Notes under the pieces: model-generated | The model's input: only the letters and a program-made list of their open reading frames with translations | Database searches by the model: none | What the model was told of the DNA's origin: nothing | Position numbers and translations under genes: made by a program | Part shown: positions 53,642 through 64,000 of the stretch, piece after piece | Numbering within the stretch: the stretch's first letter is position 1 | Layout of the letters: the number at the start of each line of letters is the position of its first letter | NCBI GenBank assembly: GCA_040880725.1 | Contig: JBBDHV010000039.1 | Location: 6,481-70,480, forward strand | Direction: 5' to 3' | Length of the DNA stretch: 64,000 bases | Source: Acidimicrobiia bacterium | GTDB taxonomy: Bacteria > Actinomycetota > Acidimicrobiia > Spongiisociales > ZC4RG35

Positions 53642-55177
53642 TCAGTCGGTGTAACCGGCCACGAGGGAACGCTTCAGTTCGTTGAGTTCGGTGGTCAGCG
53701 ACACGTGATAGCGGTGCGGGTTGACGAGCCTGCGCACACCCGGGTCGAGTCGTTCGAGATCGGCGAGACGTCGTTTCCGCGCCGCTTCCACTCCCCCCGC
53801 CTCGAACGTACGTGTTCCTTTGTCGTAGACCGTCGTCAGCAGCGGCTCGATTTCCGAGATCGTTTCCGGTGCCAGGGTGCGGGTGACACCAGGAATCGAA
53901 GGATGGTGAATCTGGATGGTCCCGGTGGCGTCGAGCTCTTCGTCTGCGAGGGCGAGCACGTCGGCGGTGGCGAAGCCCCGATCGTCGTACAGCCGCCACA
54001 CACGCTTGGCGGCGGGGTTCTGCACCTTGGCGGGCGTGTCGGAGATCTTGATGGCCGGAACCCACTCGCCGTCGGTGCCGCCGACCGCCACGGTCTTGTA
54101 GACACCTCCCAGCGACGAGTCGCCTTCGGAGGTGACGAGCTTGGACCCCACTCCGTGCACCAGCCGGGAGATGAGATGATCGGCATCGACCCCGTAGGTC
54201 GGCGCTTCCACCGCGATCTGGTTCTTGACCTGCCAGATCGTGAGTTCATCGAGCGAGCTGGAGAGCACGATCCTCGTGTTCTCGAAACCGGCGGCGTCGA
54301 GCATCTCGGCGGCGCGTACGGACAGGTGGGCGAGGTCGCCGGAGTCGAGCCGGATACCGATCGGCTCGTGGCCTGCGGCCCGCAGTTCCTCGAAGACGGT
54401 GATGGCGTTGGGGATTCCGGATTCGAGGGTGTCGATGGTGTCGACGAGGAGCAGTGTGTCGTCCGGATAGACCTCCGCATAGGCCCGGAACGATTCCAGC
54501 TCTCCCCCACCGACGGCCATGAACACCTGCACCATCGAGTGGGCATGGGTGCCGGACGAGTCGACGCCGAGCTGGTGGGACATGCCGACGTTCGAAGACG
54601 AGACGGCTCCGCCGATCAGCGACGAACGGGTGGCGGTGTTCCCCCCGAAACCGGGTGCGCGGCGCAGCCCGAACTCGATGACGGAGCCTCCGGCGGCTGC
54701 CTCCACCACCCGAGATGCCTTGGTGGCGATGAGCGTCGCGTAGTTCATGTGGTTGAGCAGCGGCGTTTCGAGGATCTGGGCGATGGCCAGCGGCGCTTCG
54801 ACGACGGCGACGGGCGCGTTTGCATGCACCACGCGGCCTTCGGGCACCGCCCGCATCGTGACGTCGCCGAATCCGCCGGTCTCCGATAGCCAGTCGAGGA
54901 AGTCGTCTGCGAAGACCCGCGCACCACGCGGCGAGCGGATCGAAGCGAGCACCTCTCGTTCGGCCCCACCGAAACGGACCGTCCCCATCCAGTCGAGGAG
55001 CGGTTCCAACCCCGCGGTGATGCAGTAGCCGGCCTGGTGGAGCCCGTAGTCCGGATAGGAGCGGAAGAAATGCTCGAACTGGGCGGGGCGGGTGTGGAGG
55101 TCGGACCGGAAGTACAGCTGCGCCATCGTCAACTGGTAGTGGTCCGTGAACAAAAAGCCGGTCGCGATGTCGGTCAC
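53642..55177 (-). CDS. pncB: Nicotinate phosphoribosyltransferase
   Basis: N-terminal DHYQLTMAQ motif and the NAPRTase family fold. 511 aa. Confidence 0.9.
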
Positions 55178-56026: not shown

Positions 56027-56956
56027 ATGGGAGTGGGCGTGTCTGGGAATCATGCTTCGAACCGTGGGCCTGTCGCTGGAATCTCCCGCCGGGACCTCCT
56101 GAAGCGGAGCGCCGCTTTGGGCGGGACCGCGCTCTGGGTCACACCTGCAGTGCAGGCAATCGGGATGAGCCGAGCCCTGGCGCAAGAAACGTCGCCCCTG
56201 CCCCCGACGGGCGCAGGCGTCGTCAGCGGTCAGGTCGTTGACGCGACCACGGGTCTTTCCATTGCCGGCGCCACAGTCGCCGTCATTGGTACCGGAATCT
56301 CTACTGTCAGTGACTCGGGCGGCAATTACACGCTCACCAACGTGCCGGCAGGAACGCAAACGCTCGAAGGTTCAGCGTCGGGCTATTTCACCGCTACGAC
56401 GTCGGTTGCAGTCATCGACGGTGCCACCGTCAACAAGGTCATCGCGCTTTCCCCGATAACGACTTCCGACATCACTGCGGTACTCAGCTGGGGTGCCGTC
56501 CCCGCTGATCTCGATCTCCACGCTTCCGGTCCCGACGGGTCGGGAGGCCGCTTCCACGCCGCCTATTTCGACAAGACGCCAGTTGGCCATGTGGAACTCG
56601 ATGTGGATGACACGTCTTCGTTCGGCCCTGAGACGATGTCATTCAAGATCCATCCCGTCGATGGCACCTTTGTGGCCGGTACCTATCGCGTCTGGGTTCA
56701 TGACTACACCAATCGCACGAGCGGTTCGATTCCCCAGTGGGACGACTCCGCCGCAAGCGTGTTGCTCAATGGACTGTCCGGTCAGATTGCCGAGTACCTC
56801 GTCGATGCAGCGGTGGCGGCGAAGGGTGGGGTCATCGTGGATGAGGACAAGTTGTGGCGGGTCGTGCAATTCGACCTCGATACAGCCGGGACCGTGTCGA
56901 ACATCGTGGTGTTCCAGAACTTTGTCAACGGAACGGAATCGACCACCGACGTATAG
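56027..56956 (+). CDS. TAT-secreted protein with a carboxypeptidase-regulatory-like (CarbopepD_reg) beta-sandwich domain; the C-terminal domain is unknown
   Basis: Twin-arginine leader SRRDLLKRSAALGGTALWVTPAVQAIGMSRALAQE. The GQVVDATTGLSIAGATVAV...SDSGGNYTLTNVPAGTQTLEGSASGYF pattern is typical of CarbopepD_reg. Confidence 0.6.
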   Translation: MGVGVSGNHASNRGPVAGISRRDLLKRSAALGGTALWVTPAVQAIGMSRALAQETSPLPPTGAGVVSGQVVDATTGLSIAGATVAVIGTGISTVSDSGGNYTLTNVPAGTQTLEGSASGYFTATTSVAVIDGATVNKVIALSPITTSDITAVLSWGAVPADLDLHASGPDGSGGRFHAAYFDKTPVGHVELDVDDTSSFGPETMSFKIHPVDGTFVAGTYRVWVHDYTNRTSGSIPQWDDSAASVLLNGLSGQIAEYLVDAAVAAKGGVIVDEDKLWRVVQFDLDTAGTVSNIVVFQNFVNGTESTTDV

Positions 56957-57108
56957 GTTGGGCGCCTCATCTTCGACGTCGCAGGTCGGCCTCCTGCCCT
57001 GGTGATCCCATCCCTTTTCGCTCCCCCGGCCCCCCCTGGGGCCGGAATGGGGAAGTAGCTGGGGACCCGCAGGGGACCCCGCCCACCGAAGCAGATCTGG
57101 GCGCGAAC

Positions 57109-57245
57109 CACCGCCCCTCGACGCCAACCGACTCGGTTTCCCGACCACCGTGATCCAGGCGGCCAGTGCCGCGGTGGAACTCGAAGCAGGCGACACCGAA
57201 CGCTCCGAGGTCGAACTCATCGCGTCGGGCGTCAATCTGCGCTGA
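57109..57245 (+). pseudogene. Displaced 3'-terminal fragment of pncA. It forms a 137-bp imperfect direct repeat of 55685-55821.
   Basis: About 92% nucleotide identity to the pncA 3' end. It stays in frame, encoding LDANRLGFPTTVIQAASAAVELEAGDTERSEVELIASGVNLR*. Five of eight codon differences are synonymous. It has no 5' part or start codon. Confidence 0.6.
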
Positions 57246-58788
57246 CCGTCTCCGGCGGGTCCGGTCGACGTCGGAGGTAGGCGTGTCCGCCGGCTGCGAG
57301 CCCGCCCAGGGCCGGCAGCCAGAACGAGATCAACCGGAACGTCAACACGGGTCCGGCTGCAGCGGCTGCCGGGATTCCGAAGAGGGTGAGAGCGCCCAGG
57401 AGACCGACTTCGGTCACACCGAGGCCTCCCGGTGCACCGGGGAGACCCCCCACGATCTGGGAGATCCCGAAGGAGCCCACCACCTGGGCGGGAGCCATCG
57501 AGATGCCGAATGCGACCAGGGTCAACCCGAGCGTGGCGGCTTCGAGCAGCGTGCGTGCCGTGAGCAGCCCCCACGATTTGCGGTCGAGTTCCCGGTCGAC
57601 GAGGGCTTCGCTCATCCGGGTTCGGAAACGTCGCGGCAGCATCCACACGAGTCGTCGCAGATGCCCGGCGAAGCCGACGAGTCCCGCCGCCACGGCCACA
57701 CACCCCACTCCGACCAGGGCCATCGTCTTCGAGGCGTTCCCCGGCTGGTGGAGTACCGACGCCCAGATCAGGCCGATCCCGGTGATCCCGAGCAGTCCTC
57801 CATACGACAGCACCGTCGCCCGCACCGCGGCTCCCACGGTGTTCTCGGTGCGGTCTTTGACGGACCAGGCCATGGCCAGTGGGGTGACCAACCCCCCGGC
57901 CGGGATGAGCCGTGCGATGCCTGTCCCGACCAGAGCAGCCCGGAATGCCGTCCCTGAGGAGATGTGGACTCCGGACGCACGTGCTCCTTGGCGGTAGAGC
58001 TCCCCGAAGGCGTATTCGGCTCCGAACTCGGTGGCTGCGGCGGCGAGGAGCAGAGCCACGGTGGCCGTCGACACTCGGAGATCGGTGGCTCGGGAACCGG
58101 CCAGCCAGACGTAGGTGGGGAATCCGACGAGGATCAGCGCCGGAACCCACCACATGCGGCTCCCCTCCACGGCGAGCGGACGCGAGGGGAGGCTGACCGT
58201 GCGGGAATCGTCGTCGAACAGCACCCGCCTGAGCAGGCCGTGACGGACGAGCCCTGCATTTCCCTGGGCTCTGCGGACGGCCATCATCGACCCGAGACCC
58301 GCCGCGAACAGGACCACCGGGACCGTGGGGTGTTGCCACACGGCGAAAAGGGGTAGCAGCGCCCAGCCGAAGAATCCGGCGATGCCGCCTCCGACAGCCC
58401 AGCCCGCCACCGACCACAGCCCAGGCCACACCGCCAGAGACGGCATGAACCCGACGACCGCGCCGGCCGACGTCGCCAGTCCACGTCCACCTCGGCGGCG
58501 TCCCAGAACCGGCCAGTCGTTTCCCGCAACTGCCGCCAATCCGACGGCGGCCACCGCGGCGTTCGAGAAGCCGACGTTGCGGGCGGCCAGCACCGGAACG
58601 AGGCCTTTCAGCCCGTCGAGCACTGCGAGCATGATCCCGGCGCCGAGGCCGATCGACCGAGTGGCGTTGCCGGCTCCGGCGTTTCCGCTCCCCACGCCGG
58701 TGAGGTCGGTTCGCCAGAGGATGCGCACGGCGTTGGAGGCCGGAATCGACCCGATCAGCCATGCACAGAAAACTGCCAGAACCACCAT
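57232..58788 (-). CDS. plsY: Fusion protein: glycerol-3-phosphate acyltransferase PlsY (N-terminal about 200 aa) plus a UPF0104 / lysyl-phosphatidylglycerol-synthase-like flippase TM domain (C-terminal about 300 aa)
   Basis: The N-terminus AWLIGSIPASNAV...GSGNAGAGNATR...DGLKG matches the PlsY signature. The C-terminal polytopic region ends in GGLGVTEVGLLGALTLFGIP...FRLISFWLPALGG, typical of the UPF0104/MprF flippase-type domain. Confidence 0.7.
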   Translation of the reverse strand: MVVLAVFCAWLIGSIPASNAVRILWRTDLTGVGSGNAGAGNATRSIGLGAGIMLAVLDGLKGLVPVLAARNVGFSNAAVAAVGLAAVAGNDWPVLGRRRGGRGLATSAGAVVGFMPSLAVWPGLWSVAGWAVGGGIAGFFGWALLPLFAVWQHPTVPVVLFAAGLGSMMAVRRAQGNAGLVRHGLLRRVLFDDDSRTVSLPSRPLAVEGSRMWWVPALILVGFPTYVWLAGSRATDLRVSTATVALLLAAAATEFGAEYAFGELYRQGARASGVHISSGTAFRAALVGTGIARLIPAGGLVTPLAMAWSVKDRTENTVGAAVRATVLSYGGLLGITGIGLIWASVLHQPGNASKTMALVGVGCVAVAAGLVGFAGHLRRLVWMLPRRFRTRMSEALVDRELDRKSWGLLTARTLLEAATLGLTLVAFGISMAPAQVVGSFGISQIVGGLPGAPGGLGVTEVGLLGALTLFGIPAAAAAGPVLTFRLISFWLPALGGLAAGGHAYLRRRPDPPETVSAD

Positions 58789-60045: not shown

Positions 60046-60453
60046 TCATTTCGAAGTGGCGACGAATTCGACCCGGGCGTTGCACCCGGGCACGGCAGCC
60101 AGGGCGGAGTCCCCGGTCACGAACGGGACCTCCAACACCTCAGCGAGGGCGAGGTAGAGACCGTCGTACATCGTCATGTTCCGGCGGAGCTGGAAGGCCC
60201 GATCGACCAGTCGAGTGTGCGGGTATCGGACAATCGGTAGCTCCATCGCGTCGGCCAGGGCTGCTGTCGCCTGCGGCTCGTCGATCTCTCCTCCGAGCTC
60301 GTACCGACGAACGACCTGGCCGATTTCTGCATCGATCAAGTGAGGTGCACACGCCACGGTTCCGGACAGCAGCGAAGCAGCCAGGAAGTCACCGGCCGGG
60401 CTTCCAGGCCCCAGCACCAGGTCGACGACGACCGACGCGTCGACGACGATCAA
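60046..60453 (-). CDS. vapC: PIN-domain ribonuclease toxin VapC
   Basis: N-terminal MIVVDASVVVDL with conserved acidic residues (D5, E42-like, D100-like). 4-nt overlap with the upstream antitoxin gene. Confidence 0.8.
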   Translation of the reverse strand: MIVVDASVVVDLVLGPGSPAGDFLAASLLSGTVACAPHLIDAEIGQVVRRYELGGEIDEPQATAALADAMELPIVRYPHTRLVDRAFQLRRNMTMYDGLYLALAEVLEVPFVTGDSALAAVPGCNARVEFVATSK

Positions 60454-60671
60454 CGGCTGTCGCGTTCAGAGCGCAGCGCTTCCGCGGGCGTTTCGGACAA
60501 TGCGGGGCGGTTCTTCGTCACGATCCGCTCGAGGATCTCATCAACCGGTGGCGTTGCCACGATCCGTTCCATCTCGTGAGCCAGGAAGTCGGAGAGGGAC
60601 ATCCCTGCCCGAGTGGCGCGTGCCTTGAGTTCCTGGTGGATGGCATCGGGAACATTCCGAACCTGGATCAT
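60450..60671 (-). CDS. vapB: VapB-type antitoxin (ribbon-helix-helix)
   Basis: MIQVRNVPDAIHQELKARATRAGMSLSDFL is a typical RHH antitoxin N-terminus. The start is assigned to the internal ATG. Confidence 0.65.
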   Translation of the reverse strand: MIQVRNVPDAIHQELKARATRAGMSLSDFLAHEMERIVATPPVDEILERIVTKNRPALSETPAEALRSERDSR

Positions 60672-60754
60672 CTTGGTCATGTGGTGCACAGTAATTGCAT
60701 GTGCAGCACATGCACTGCCCGAGCCTCCGCGGGGGACACCCCGAACGAGGTTGA

Positions 60755-61663
60755 ATGCATCCGGTGATCCTCGACACGCTGCAACTGATCCTGTCTTCGT
60801 CCGACTTCCTCGGTGCCCTCCCGCTGGCGGGAATCATCCTCGGGGTCGGTACGGGTCTCCTGGTCATCCGCCGACGGTTCCCCGCAGTTCCCGTGGCCGG
60901 GATCGCCTTCGCGGCAGCGGCGATGTACGGGTTGAGTGAAACGCCGGTGGCCTCCGACCCGTTGGTGACGGCGATCGCCGCCTTCGCCGTGGCCGGCCTC
61001 GTCCGCGATGTCATCGAGATTCCCCCGTACGCACAGGTGTTGCTGGCGCTGCCGGGAGCGTGGCTCATCGCAGGCGCCCTCCCCTTCGCCGGTCCCGGAT
61101 GGGTCCTTCCTGTGTGCTTCGTGTTCCTGGCGGTGGGTGCACCTCTCCTTGCCGGGTTCGACCGTTCCCAAACCAGGCCGCCGCTGGGTCCGCTGGTGCT
61201 CGCAATCAGTGTCGGCGCCGCCTACCTGACACTGCCGGACACCGAGGAGATACTGGTCCTCGTTCCGATCGCCGCCGCCATCGCCCTGTGCGCGTGGCCG
61301 CTGGGGACGATGCGTCTGGGCGCGGCCGGTTCGCATGCGGCCCTGGCCGTGGTCGCCGCGGTCGCATCCTGGGACGGCCGGGGACGTCCTGCGGCGATCA
61401 TCGGCGTGATGGCAACGTTCGCAGTGCCGTACGTCTGGGGCGCTCTCGTCGCGTGGGGCGAGCGCGTCCAGCCGGTGACGACGACCTCACGAGTCCTGAC
61501 GCTGGGGACCGTCCACCTGGTGGTGGCGATCATCGCGGCCCGGGTGGTCGGCATCGGGTCCTCGGTGACGACTGCGACCGTGCTCGGTTCGGTCACTCTG
61601 GTGGTGACGGTCGTAGGGCTGACGGCTCTCGGACTGGCCTGGTCGAAGCCCACTGAGTCCTAA
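60755..61663 (+). CDS. Hypothetical polytopic membrane protein (302 aa)
   Basis: About 8 hydrophobic helices rich in Ala/Leu/Val/Gly. No recognised motif. Confidence 0.5.
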   Translation: MHPVILDTLQLILSSSDFLGALPLAGIILGVGTGLLVIRRRFPAVPVAGIAFAAAAMYGLSETPVASDPLVTAIAAFAVAGLVRDVIEIPPYAQVLLALPGAWLIAGALPFAGPGWVLPVCFVFLAVGAPLLAGFDRSQTRPPLGPLVLAISVGAAYLTLPDTEEILVLVPIAAAIALCAWPLGTMRLGAAGSHAALAVVAAVASWDGRGRPAAIIGVMATFAVPYVWGALVAWGERVQPVTTTSRVLTLGTVHLVVAIIAARVVGIGSSVTTATVLGSVTLVVTVVGLTALGLAWSKPTES

Positions 61664-62787
61664 CGCGCGAACGCCGCCCGCACGCCGTCGATCACCCGCT
61701 GGCGTCCTGCTTCTTTCAGTGAGGATCCGCTGGGCAGGCACAAGCCCCGTTCGAAGAGCCCGGCGGAGACCGCTCCCCCGTACATCCGCGCTCCGGTGTA
61801 GAGGGGTTGGAGGTGCATCGGTTTCCACACCGGTCGAGCTTCGATGTCGAGGCTGTCCAGATGGAGACGCACGTCCTCTCGATCGACGCTTGCGATCGCC
61901 GGATCGATCGTGAGGCACGTCAGCCAGAACGTCGACCGCGAACCCGGAGCCTCCGGCATGAACTCGACCCCCGGCAGGTCGCCCAACGCCTCCCGGTACG
62001 CCCGGTTGTGTGCTCGGCGGGCGTCGACCCTGCGCTCGAGGTCTGCGAGTTGGGAGATGCCGAGTCCGGCCAGCAGGTTGGAGAGTCGGTAGTTGTATCC
62101 GAGTTGGGTGTGCTCGTAGTGGACGACCGGTTCCCGGGCTTGTGTTGCCAGGAACCGCGCCTGTCGGGCAGTCTCGGCGGAGTCGGTGACCAGTGCCCCT
62201 CCCCCGCTGGTGGTGATGATCTTGTTGCCGTTGAACGACAGCACCGCCAGGTCCCCGAAGCTGCCCGCAGGACGCTGCCCGTATCGGGCTCCGAGCGCTT
62301 CGGCGGCATCTTCGAAGATGGGAACATCGTGACTGTCACACATCTCGGTGAGCCTGTCGTAGTCCACACACTGGCCGTAGAGGTCCACCGGGATGCACGC
62401 CGCATATCGCTCCCCGGCCGCGGCAGCATCGTCGAGGGCTTGGGCGACCAGTTCGGGGTCCATGTTCCAGGTGTCAGCTTCGCTGTCCACGAAGACGGGT
62501 TCGGCCCCGACGTAGCGCACCGCATTGGCGGTTGCCGCGAACGTGAGCGACGAAACCAGGACCCGGTCCCCCGGTCCGATGCCTGCTGTGACGAGGGCGA
62601 GATGGAGAGCGGCGGTGCCGCTCGAGAGTCCTACCGCGTGACTGCGTCCCGTGGCGGCGGCGAGATCGGCCTCGAAGCGGTCGAGGTCGGGTCCGACGGG
62701 AGCGACCCACCCTCCGTCGAGTGCGGCGATGAGGGCGTCCCGATCCCGGGCGGTGACATCGGGTGGGGACAGGTGAATGCGACTCAT
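61660..62787 (-). CDS. DegT/DnrJ/EryC1/StrS-family PLP-dependent sugar aminotransferase
   Basis: GTAALHLAL, SFNGNKIITTSGGGAL (PLP lysine) and the fold-type I pattern. The start is assigned to the internal ATG (MSRIHLSPPD); the upstream extension is Lys/Arg-rich. Confidence 0.8.
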   Translation of the reverse strand: MSRIHLSPPDVTARDRDALIAALDGGWVAPVGPDLDRFEADLAAATGRSHAVGLSSGTAALHLALVTAGIGPGDRVLVSSLTFAATANAVRYVGAEPVFVDSEADTWNMDPELVAQALDDAAAAGERYAACIPVDLYGQCVDYDRLTEMCDSHDVPIFEDAAEALGARYGQRPAGSFGDLAVLSFNGNKIITTSGGGALVTDSAETARQARFLATQAREPVVHYEHTQLGYNYRLSNLLAGLGISQLADLERRVDARRAHNRAYREALGDLPGVEFMPEAPGSRSTFWLTCLTIDPAIASVDREDVRLHLDSLDIEARPVWKPMHLQPLYTGARMYGGAVSAGLFERGLCLPSGSSLKEAGRQRVIDGVRAAFAR

Positions 62788-63232
62788 CAAGAGATGCGCG
62801 AGGCTAGTTGCGGCGGGGCACACGATTCCGATCGTGGAGGATCTGAGGCCGCTCTTGGGCAACCACGCGAACTTTTTCTTCCGATTGCCACCACAACACG
62901 TGCACAACGCGCCACTCTTGGGAGTGCGTCCCGGTGGTGCCTCCCAGCCCCTCCGGGCCTTTCGGGGTCCGGAGCCCACTCAGCCCCACCGGGGCGCACT
63001 CCTTCGACAGCGCACCACGCCGTGACCTCGCGTCAAGGTGACGTTGTGCGGCTCGTCATGTGACTAGTCCTTCGCCGACCCAGACGGTTACTTGCCTTCT
63101 CGACGACTGGCGCCCCTCATCTTGCACCCGCCTGGCGACACGTCGAAGTTCTCGGTTCCAGGACAGCTCGCGAAATACGACGTCCGGCGTATGGACCCCA
63201 ACTTCCCGCATCCATAGGCTGGACACTTCACG

Positions 63233-63832
63233 ATGCCAACGCGCCCCGCGTCCGCAACTGACGGCCTCACCCGTCGCCAGGTTCTCAAGCGTGGAGCCGC
63301 GCTCGGGGCGGCATCCCTGTGGACGACGCCGGCGCTCCAACTCGTTCGGATGTCGAGTGCCCGCGCGGCCGAAACGAGCGGTTCGACGTGTGTCACCTAC
63401 TGCATCAAGTGGGACGTCAGCAACCAAGCCTGGGAGTCTCTGGGCAACGGTGCCCAGGCCTGCCTCACCTGTCCCCCGGGCGCCCTGAACGACACCCCGC
63501 CGGATACCCTGCTCAACCAGTTCACCGTCTCGGGTGACCCCGAGGTATCACTGACCGTCAGGTATCCGTCGTCCTGCTCGCTCCTCGTCCTTGACGCTTT
63601 GGACGAGATCACCAACAACGCCACCGCTGCGGGCAAGTGCGGCACGAACCGCGGCCCCTTCGCGGGCCTCAGTGCGTGCAGTTACGTCAGTCACGAGAAC
63701 CAGGAGATGGACGGCCTAAACGCCGGAACCGGTGAGTTCTTCCTCCTCGAGATTCCCGTATGCGAAAACGGCAGAGGAATCTCCCACATCGAAATGATCG
63801 TTCAGTGTTGCGACCATGAGACCAGCGCGTAG
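63233..63832 (+). CDS. Cys-rich TAT-secreted protein (199 aa), hypothetical
   Basis: Twin-arginine leader TRRQVLKRGAALGAASLWTTPALQLVRMSSARAAE, homologous to the leader of the 56027 gene. The mature part has 11 Cys (CVTYC, CLTCPPG, QCCDHE). Confidence 0.55.
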   Translation: MPTRPASATDGLTRRQVLKRGAALGAASLWTTPALQLVRMSSARAAETSGSTCVTYCIKWDVSNQAWESLGNGAQACLTCPPGALNDTPPDTLLNQFTVSGDPEVSLTVRYPSSCSLLVLDALDEITNNATAAGKCGTNRGPFAGLSACSYVSHENQEMDGLNAGTGEFFLLEIPVCENGRGISHIEMIVQCCDHETSA

Positions 63833-63848
63833 TGTCAGGAATCAGACC

Positions 63849-64000
63849 ATGAGTCCACAGACCACAGCACAGGCGGGACTGACCCGCAGGGACATCCTCA
63901 AGCGGGGTGCAGTCCTCGGTGGCGCGCTCGTGTGGGTCACTCCGGCCGTTCAGATCGTCGGTATGGGCCGAGCGAAAGCCCAGATACCCAGCCCGGGTTG
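63849..64000 (+). CDS. Third TAT-leader paralogue; N-terminus only, truncated by the window edge
   Basis: MSPQTTAQAGLTRRDILKRGAVLGGALVWVTPAVQIVGMGRAKAQIPSPG, with the same conserved leader architecture. Confidence 0.45.
   Translation, partial: MSPQTTAQAGLTRRDILKRGAVLGGALVWVTPAVQIVGMGRAKAQIPSPG

Follow-up and report, generated by a model that had tools for sequence, protein, structure and literature searches.

Three genes in the last 8 kb of a 64,000-nucleotide stretch of Acidimicrobiia DNA (GenBank assembly GCA_040880725.1, contig JBBDHV010000039.1, positions 6,481 to 70,480 of the forward strand; hereafter the window, in whose numbering coordinates are given unless another contig is named) encode proteins, here P1, P2 and P3, that begin with the same type of leader. 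The leader resembles a twin-arginine translocation (Tat) signal, is conserved well beyond the Tat motif in a large, nearly phylum-restricted set of proteins, and is encoded at most loci close to genes for a PqqD-family chaperone, a relative of HPr kinase, or both. With confidence a little above even, we read it as a cleavable Tat signal that doubles as a recognition leader for a PqqD chaperone, serving cytoplasmic modification of the protein before export.

The leader and the proteins that carry it

P1 (56027..56956, + strand; 309 amino acids), P2 (63233..63832, +; 199 amino acids; NCBI locus tag WD156_09290) and P3 (63849..64000, +; partial, the window end cutting it after its first 50 codons) are present, with the shared leader, where the initial annotation of this DNA had placed them; NCBI starts P1 at an alternative GTG (56039), giving a product of 305 amino acids. 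The window genes are 100% identical to those of the Acidimicrobiia metagenome-assembled genome (MAG) GCA_040904385.1, and P1 is 100% identical to P0003, also from an Acidimicrobiia MAG. Ungapped alignment of the N-termini (P1 GISRRDLLKRSAALGGTALWVTPAVQAIGMSRALAQETSP, P2 GLTRRQVLKRGAALGAASLWTTPALQLVRMSSARAAETSG, P3 GLTRRDILKRGAVLGGALVWVTPAVQIVGMGRAKAQIPSP) gave pairwise identities of 23–26 of 41 residues and the consensus G[LI][ST]RRxxLK[RK]GAxxGGxxxWxxPxVQxxGMxxAxA, followed after the predicted cut by QxxS[P]. Family positions are numbered below with the twin arginines as 1 and 2.

The P1 leader (56027..56182, +; 52 codons, ending in MSRALA, with a signal-peptidase I cut predicted before QETSP from the alignment and logo) contains the twin-arginine motif SRRDLLK (56084..56104, +) and WVTPAVQ (56135..56155, +), its version of the W-x-x-P-x-V-Q core that we propose as the PqqD recognition element; Ser56 (56192..56194, +; family position 36), four residues past AxA, is the candidate modification site. 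The P2 leader (63233..63367, +; 45 codons) has TRRQVLK at 63269-63289, WTTPALQ at 63320-63340 and ARA at 63359-63367, with the conserved Ser49 (63377-63379, +) just past it. In P3, the leader (63849-63980, +) comprises TRRDILK (63882-63902), WVTPAVQ (63933-63953) and AKA (63972-63980), and Ser48 (63990-63992, +) again lies just beyond. A six-frame regular-expression search found no further copy in the 64 kb, and a degenerate DNA pattern matched just these three sites (0 expected, 100 shuffles). At degenerate codons for conserved amino acids, the three pairs of leaders used identical codons in 6/21, 8/24 and 6/21 cases, where codon usage predicts 8.3, 10.0 and 8.3; since this is no higher than the prediction, the similarity is old and kept by selection at the protein level, and gene conversion or recent duplication among the three leaders was rejected on the same analysis.

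A leader profile built from 5 sequences and scored exhaustively against 1.84 billion representative proteins matched 1,205 protein clusters at E<=1e-3 and 245 at E<=1e-10 (a word-indexed protein search with the profile gave merely 2 matches among 19 candidates). The best 150 matches lie nearly all within the first ~60 residues of proteins of 65–315 amino acids. The logo of 152 aligned leaders reads G[LI][ST]RR[DEQ]xLK[RK]GAxxGGAxxWx[T]PxVQxxGMxxAxA-QxxS[P], and the spacing from the twin arginines to the tryptophan was 16 residues with three exceptions among the 155 sequences checked. Conservation in the 152 leaders was 96–100% at W17, P20, Q23, A30, A32 and S36 (99–100% for the W, P and Q of the core, 97–98% for A30 and A32, and 96% Ser at position 36 in this hidden Markov model (HMM) set), and information content collapsed past position 37. 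In two independent sets collected with a DNA pattern, one from genomes and one from metagenomes, A32 and S36 lie outside the selected positions; there A32 was kept in 95% and 101/102 (99%) of leaders, and position 36 was Ser in 67% and 64%. Orthologues of P1 picked through the mature domain keep RR...W..P.VQ down to ~40% identity, while P1 homologues that probably come from other phyla (only a few have taxon labels) carry Sec or lipoprotein signals. The similarity thus extends beyond the generic RRxFLK consensus in the larger set, by both the alignment and the HMM scan, and the profile search and logo bear out two proposals of the initial annotation, that conservation runs well past the minimal Tat motif and that the leader is borne by unrelated cargo.

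Several features mark the leader as Tat-type, as had been proposed. The twin-arginine motifs of P1, P2 and P3 fit S/T-R-R-x-[LIV]-L-K, and the Tat model TIGR01409 (cut-off 16.7 bits) scored P1 and P3 above threshold (17.6 and 18.7 bits) and P2 below it (14.8 bits), matching 51/148 leader-family members at E<=0.01; the Pfam model PF10518 (TAT_signal) scored all three below its gathering threshold. Behind the RR motif comes a mildly hydrophobic stretch, a basic c-region residue is common and A-x-A is nearly invariant, a signal-peptidase I site being predicted after it by the -3/-1 rule only. Several leader proteins end in LPxTG, LPFTG or LAFTG followed by a transmembrane segment and a basic tail; as the leader is their sole N-terminal signal, their export must depend on it. 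Such a C-terminal arrangement is absent from P1 and P2, LPxTG occurring in a subset of the family only. Cysteine counts are mostly even, which fits extracytoplasmic disulfides. On these sequence features we take the leader to be a Tat signal, and its carriers to be probable Tat substrates. A TatA regular expression, the one search made for tat genes in the window, matched nothing there. In ~500 neighbouring open reading frames (ORFs) scanned for motif-free Tat signals, all that turned up were variants of the motif and a single lipoprotein-like N-terminus, a yield too small to settle specificity.

Behind the leader, P1 has a CarboxypepD_reg (transthyretin-like) domain (PF13715, 6e-15; PF13620, 2e-13) and a C-terminal beta domain without a Pfam model. 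Both were modelled with high confidence by AlphaFold2 (predicted local distance difference test (pLDDT) 86.5 for the protein, <50 in the leader), and in Foldseek searches of the PDB only the first domain found matches. The second (56470-56956, residues ~150-309; pLDDT >90) has the strongly conserved motifs W.G..P.DLDLH, GRFH and LDVDD.SSFGPET, and its relatives are annotated at the Joint Genome Institute (JGI) as 'YfaP/DUF2135 family'. The mature part of P2 is a beta-rich domain (C.TYC.KWD ... ISHIEMIVQCC) with 10 cysteines, where 11 had been counted, and matched neither a Pfam model nor a PDB fold. The final two bases of the window, TG, open a Cys or Trp codon of P3, exactly where P3 orthologues (P0083; gene 1384-2355 of contig L083) have SPGC; these orthologues read SPGC[IL]RYC.KWE ... 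ISH[IL]ELIIDCC and so belong to the P2 family, which makes P2 and P3 tandem paralogues throughout, mature parts included. Judged by sequence, P1 alone among the three is unrelated in its mature part; the earlier description of unrelated mature domains holds for P1 against P2 and P3, and not for P2 against P3.

Across the family there are at least 12 kinds of mature part, unrelated to one another. These include ISYI..KWE proteins, the P2 family (C.YC.KWE ... ISHIE..CC), YAVKIE ... ISHVE.FCC proteins, PSDTC proteins, CCL-type proteins, CDC mini-proteins of ~110 amino acids, the P1 type, Pro/Thr-rich sortase substrates (LPxTG, LPFTG or LAFTG), peptides of 65–90 amino acids with poly-Asp or basic Gly-rich tails, and choice-of-anchor C/P, DUF642 and DUF7467 proteins. 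Pfam and NCBIfam recognised almost none of the mature families and saw the leader merely as a generic Tat signal. The peptides are in effect leader-only mini-proteins (P0001, P0068, P0180, P0194; P0002, P0104, P0117, P0164, P0170, P0207), in which AxA is followed by a tail of ~20–40 residues, either acidic (poly-Asp/Gly) or basic (Gly/Lys/Arg-rich). One of them, the 75-residue P0002, adjoins a PqqD gene and a kinase-like gene at locus L003. A leader variant, RR[DE]FLRKAAxTGAAAAWAAPVIQTVAATPAFAQT, precedes a mini-protein with 12–14 cysteines (C.HS.GG..GCM.AC) at L011, L020, L022, L028, L057, L059, L067, L073 and L076, where it typically adjoins two HprK-like genes.

The DNA leader pattern, run over 185,579 species genomes, matched 76 stretches, comprising 61 true loci and 15 false-positive ones. 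The true matches were nearly all in Actinomycetota, in keeping with the proposal of a clade-specific sorting or processing signal; carriers were found in Acidimicrobiia, Jatrophihabitans, Frankiaceae, the cultured Motilibacter deserti E257 (L021, L060), Jiangellaceae, Kineosporiaceae, one Pseudonocardiaceae MAG and many unclassified Actinomycetota. Of the matches that bore labels from other phyla, all but two oddly labelled records had arisen by chance out of frame. The first (L071, NZ_JAXHCD010000001.1, 'Jannaschia sp. R86511') has three tandem leader genes and Mfd, whose sequences and order are almost the same as in an Actinomycetales MAG (L033), so its alphaproteobacterial genus label looks wrong; the second (L068), a MAG labelled Acidobacteriota, has a gene almost identical to one in an Acidimicrobiia MAG (L061), which suggests mis-binning or mislabelling. 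Tandem arrays are common (P2/P3 in the window, three copies at L016 and L071, two each at L033 and L021).

Neighbours of the leader genes

Clustering of the ORFs around true loci, with Pfam and NCBIfam searches of 102 neighbour ORFs, revealed two dominant neighbour families, a PqqD-family chaperone (PF05402 in 32 ORFs, lasso_PqqD in 25, and TIGR04353, 'HPr-rel-A system PqqD family peptide chaperone', in 18) and a protein like HprK-related kinase A (TIGR04352 in 39/102, best E 3.4e-38). The loci usually hold one or two genes of each kind. PF14907 (NTP_transf_5) was found in 17/102 neighbour ORFs, often fused to GT4, and GT4 in 17/102. When fetched stretches of 8 kb or less were scored with local HMMs, a PqqD and/or kinase-like gene was present at 45/61 true genome loci vs 0/15 false-positive loci, at a median gap of ~200 bp from the leader gene. 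An independent scan of JGI metagenome contigs gave 68/96 loci, and 28/35 contigs of >=4 kb, with PqqD and/or kinase.

The kinase-like proteins retain a His, a GxGKS P-loop and an S-D-E motif, and their best PDB matches, which are weak, are HPr kinases. Second HprK-like paralogues without GxGKS (L012:6138-6956, L055:2941-3804, L020:1096-2004, L087:6952-7809) look like pseudokinases beside an intact copy, each often following its own PqqD gene. At L019 a 411-residue ORF (3-1235, - strand) fuses a MauE/DoxX domain, a thioredoxin/AhpC-like domain (CGPC) and a C-terminal PqqD domain, which hints at a chaperone link to disulfide handling of Cys-rich cargo. In M. deserti a single gene (L021:5567-6682) fuses PqqD and the kinase.

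Other recurrent neighbours were LuxR/GerE regulators, UDP-glucose dehydrogenase, RmlD, WecG, WecA-like transferases, Wzz-type kinases and DegT, which together indicate surface-glycan loci. Neither a signal peptidase nor any other peptidase recurred beside the leader genes; the dedicated signal peptidase suggested in the initial annotation therefore gives way to PqqD-family chaperones and HprK-related kinase-like proteins as the recurring partners. A lasso cyclase and a B2 peptidase were likewise absent among recurrent neighbours, an ABC ATPase family was present at only 3/61 loci, and PADLOC returned no defence-system match.

The best-matching curated pair for these neighbours is Haft's HPr-rel-A system (TIGR04352, HprK-related kinase A, and TIGR04353, PqqD chaperone), in which, as at the leader loci, a PqqD-family chaperone and a nucleotidyltransferase co-occur. 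The HPr-rel-A system also associates with exopolysaccharide loci, and to our knowledge no substrate has been described for either family.

P2 orthologues with 59–85% identity were found on five contigs (L083, L084, L088, L089, L090), and the gene order RRM, thioesterase, 302-residue membrane protein, DegT (-), P2 (+), P3 (+) is common to these and the window as far as each reaches. In the window, the membrane protein (60755..61663, +; no Pfam or NCBIfam match, also found at L034 and L042) is followed by the DegT/DnrJ/EryC1 sugar aminotransferase (61660..62787, -; likely start MSRIHLSPP, 375 amino acids), which is divergent from P2. If that start is right, a gap of 445 bp (62788-63232) separates DegT from P2 and probably holds the promoters of the locus. 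On the orthologous contigs P3 is followed by a 283-residue HprK-like protein (-), PqqD (-), a GT4-GNAT fusion, a WecA-like transferase and more glycan genes, the PqqD gene coming right after the P3 region on the four contigs that reach that far (L083, L088-L090) and L084 ending inside the kinase gene. The PqqD of L083 and L088 has 92 residues. Since the window ends 50 codons into P3, this synteny implies that a kinase and a PqqD gene should lie immediately past base 64000.

P1 had been described as the cargo of a pncA cassette, which its orthologues contradict. One (P0031, L087) lies in a cluster GerE-GerE-PqqD-kinase-PqqD-kinase' with two other leader proteins and another (L085) lies among integrase genes, so the adjacency of P1 to pncA is incidental. 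The related suggestion of a mobile, expandable family stands in so far as the family expands in tandem arrays; DegT, cited as a hint of mobility, is a genuine syntenic neighbour as part of a surface-glycan locus and does not speak for mobility.

A leader that may be read twice

Under the reading favoured here, the h- and C-terminal region of the leader would carry a superimposed code (W-x-x-P-x-V-Q-x-x-[G/S/A]-M, A-x-A and a conserved Ser/Thr-Pro), and the leader would tag a large set, specific to Actinomycetota, of small proteins and peptides that are secreted or anchored in the wall, many of them with even numbers of cysteines. A cytoplasmic PqqD-like protein would bind the WxxPxV of the leader, as the lasso-peptide protein B1 binds YxxPxL, and hand the precursor over to the kinase, and perhaps also to nucleotidyl- or glycosyl-transferases, for modification of a residue adjoining the leader, Ser +4 being the best candidate. 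Tat, which tolerates folded, modified cargo, would then export the protein, and signal peptidase I would cleave after AxA. P2 and P3 would belong to a PqqD/kinase locus continuing past base 64000, with P1 as an outlying member.

PqqD domains are recognition elements (RREs) that bind the leader peptides of peptides made by the ribosome and modified after translation (RiPPs), and PqqA, the substrate of PqqD, also begins with WxxPx[FYV]. W17-x-x-P20-x-V22 is invariant in the leader family and has the spacing of the lasso motif YxxPxL, a resemblance in spacing and not proof of binding. In lasso precursors that recognised motif lies at -17 to -12 (PMC10368454). A Bradymonas lasso system offers the closest parallel, its HPr-kinase homologue BsfK phosphorylating core Ser3 of BsfA in a reaction greatly accelerated by the RRE protein BsfB1 (PMC10368454); W17 and S36 are 19 residues apart, as are Y(-17) and Ser3 of BsfA. 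In another lasso peptide, pseudomycoidin, a kinase and a nucleotidyltransferase bring about phosphoglycosylation (PMC8498205). By analogy, the genes at the leader loci correspond to B1, K and N, the three tailoring genes of lasso systems, minus the core enzymes, and they lie beside proteins with a matching leader motif. We put forward tentatively, as a possibility, the more specific proposal that one leader is read twice, a PqqD-type RRE recruiting an HPr-kinase-like enzyme (possibly with nucleotidyl- or glycosyl-transferases) that phosphorylates or phosphoglycosylates the Ser just past the cleavage site, and Tat then exporting the modified protein.

Several observations weigh against this reading. 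With local HMMs, neither PqqD nor kinase was found inside the 64-kb window, and P1, ~6 kb upstream of P2/P3, is not next to a PqqD or kinase gene. No PqqD or kinase was found on the fetched stretch at 26–29% of leader loci. Ser at position 36 drops to ~65% of sequences in the sets where this position was unselected, and Ser/Thr there is no commoner near a kinase (30/46 vs 18/21); in BsfA, replacement of the Y, P and L by Ala left phosphorylation standing (PMC10368454). Two of the neighbour kinases scored 52 and 78.6 bits with TIGR04352 against an equivalog cut-off of 200, which makes them distant relatives (an actinobacterial branch) and not members by the curated threshold, and some kinase-like paralogues have no P-loop. 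Leader loci also double as glycan-biosynthesis loci, so co-location may reflect a shared envelope function.

That last point is central to a plainer explanation, which we consider unlikely, that the leader is the lineage's preferred Tat signal, its extended consensus having co-evolved with the TatBC receptor and signal peptidase, and that PqqD and kinase genes are near because envelope and glycan genes share loci. The canonical n-, h- and c-region layout, the basic c-region residue and AxA would be expected under it, as would orphan members (P1 and 16/61 loci) and the richness of the loci in polysaccharide genes. A general consensus should, however, scatter over redox-enzyme and other loci, whereas 71–80% of pattern-selected genes in two independent collections have PqqD or kinase no more than a few hundred bp away; 1,205 clusters in 1.84 billion representatives also seems few for a phylum's Tat substrates, and PqqD proteins are peptide chaperones while the leader motif has RRE-recognition spacing. 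Descent alone, with tandem expansion of one ancestral gene for a secreted Cys-rich protein and rapid divergence of the mature part under diversifying selection behind an unchanging signal, as in conotoxins, would account for the tandem arrays (P2/P3, L016, L071, L033, L021), the paralogy of P2 and P3 and the many small, Cys-rich members. It sits badly with the unrelated folds of the cargo (CarboxypepD_reg, choice-of-anchor C/P, DUF642, DUF7467 and Cys-free Pro/Thr-rich sortase substrates), with the presence of the leader in two Actinomycetota classes with saturated synonymous sites, and with the Sec or lipoprotein signals on P1 homologues probably outside the phylum, which imply that the leader is a swappable module, and we find it improbable.

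We give slightly less credence still to a RiPP-type leader that is no Tat signal at all, in which RR and the hydrophobic stretch serve enzyme recognition only and the leader is cut off by a different protease or goes out by a different route, or else stays as an uncleaved membrane anchor. Members of 65–90 amino acids do adjoin PqqD, and the Pfam TAT_signal score below its gathering threshold would agree with such a leader; but the loci have no recurrent protease or ABC exporter (the ABC ATPase family at 3/61 loci), AxA is near-invariant even where unselected, sortase substrates need a real N-terminal signal, and TIGR01409 scores many members above its cut-off. A lasso-peptide identity proper was rejected, given the absence of cyclase and B2 among recurrent neighbours and the Ala at position 32.

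The reading of the leader as both Tat signal and chaperone-recognition leader has precedents on either side. Cytoplasmic chaperones of the TorD/DmsD/NapD type hold Tat cargo via its signal peptide until maturation ends, and the family shares with such signals the S/T-RR-x-[FLIV]-L-K motif, the mildly hydrophobic h-region, the basic c-region residue, AxA and the idea of a cytoplasmic binder. Unlike in ordinary Tat signals, the h and c regions hardly vary over unrelated cargo, the cargo is small and Cys-rich or Pro/Thr-rich and does not consist of cofactor enzymes, and the putative binder is a PqqD/RRE protein and not of the TorD family. With lasso tailoring systems (BsfA-B1-K-N, paeninodin, pseudomycoidin) the loci share the aromatic-x-x-P-x-aliphatic spacing, a Ser 19 residues past the aromatic residue, a PqqD-family partner, an HPr-kinase-like gene (His, GxGKS, acidic motifs) and an NTP_transf_5 gene; they differ in having no cyclase or B2 peptidase, in Ala and not Thr at -2 (position 32), in substrates mostly of 100–300 amino acids, and in a leader that also contains RR and a signal-peptidase site. 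Conserved sorting tags include YSIRK-G/S, KxYKxGKxW, PEP-CTERM/exosortase and LPXTG/sortase. Like these, the leader is a short, clade-restricted tag on many unrelated secreted proteins, near dedicated machinery and, as with PEP-CTERM, polysaccharide loci; it differs in that the tag is N-terminal and Tat-type, the machinery would be a cytoplasmic chaperone and kinase and not a membrane transpeptidase, and some members bear LPXTG as well.

In the literature library searched by full text, no paper connected PqqD or RRE proteins to Tat signals and none named the HprK-related kinase A families; curated families likewise leave the leader and most of the cargo uncovered. The leader would combine known kinds of signal, and there is a realistic chance that the combination is a genuinely new logic of maturation and export. 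If so, it would join two unconnected fields, twin-arginine export and RiPP recognition elements, and provide a searchable sorting tag on >1,200 protein clusters, almost all unannotated, which would become predicted surface or secreted proteins of Acidimicrobiia, Frankiales-like lineages and other poorly studied Actinomycetota. It would also supply candidate substrates for uncharacterised HprK-related-kinase-A/PqqD cassettes, and the 40-residue tag might serve as a tool to steer both site-specific modification and export. The double-read form, if true, would take the leader-guided chemistry of RiPPs beyond peptides to whole folded proteins, give these systems their first substrates and explain why the cargoes use Tat. 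Even on a conservative reading the leader merits a curated model of its own, because the present libraries see just a weak generic Tat signal.

Other features of the window

Inside the otherwise syntenic block, on the - strand, lie a VapC gene (PIN domain, 60046-60453) and a VapB-like antitoxin gene (60450-60689); L090 runs directly from the thioesterase to the 302-residue membrane protein, so the VapBC-like pair looks like a recent insertion. Very long ORFs antisense to or overlapping real genes (56639-58762 (-), 53705-54889 (+) and others, one of them of 707 amino acids and rich in Arg, Gly and Pro) are high-GC artefacts and not genes. At 57232-58788 (-) a protein of 518 amino acids fuses, by Pfam, a PlsY-type glycerol-3-phosphate acyltransferase with LPG_synthase_TM, an unusual fusion in lipid metabolism.

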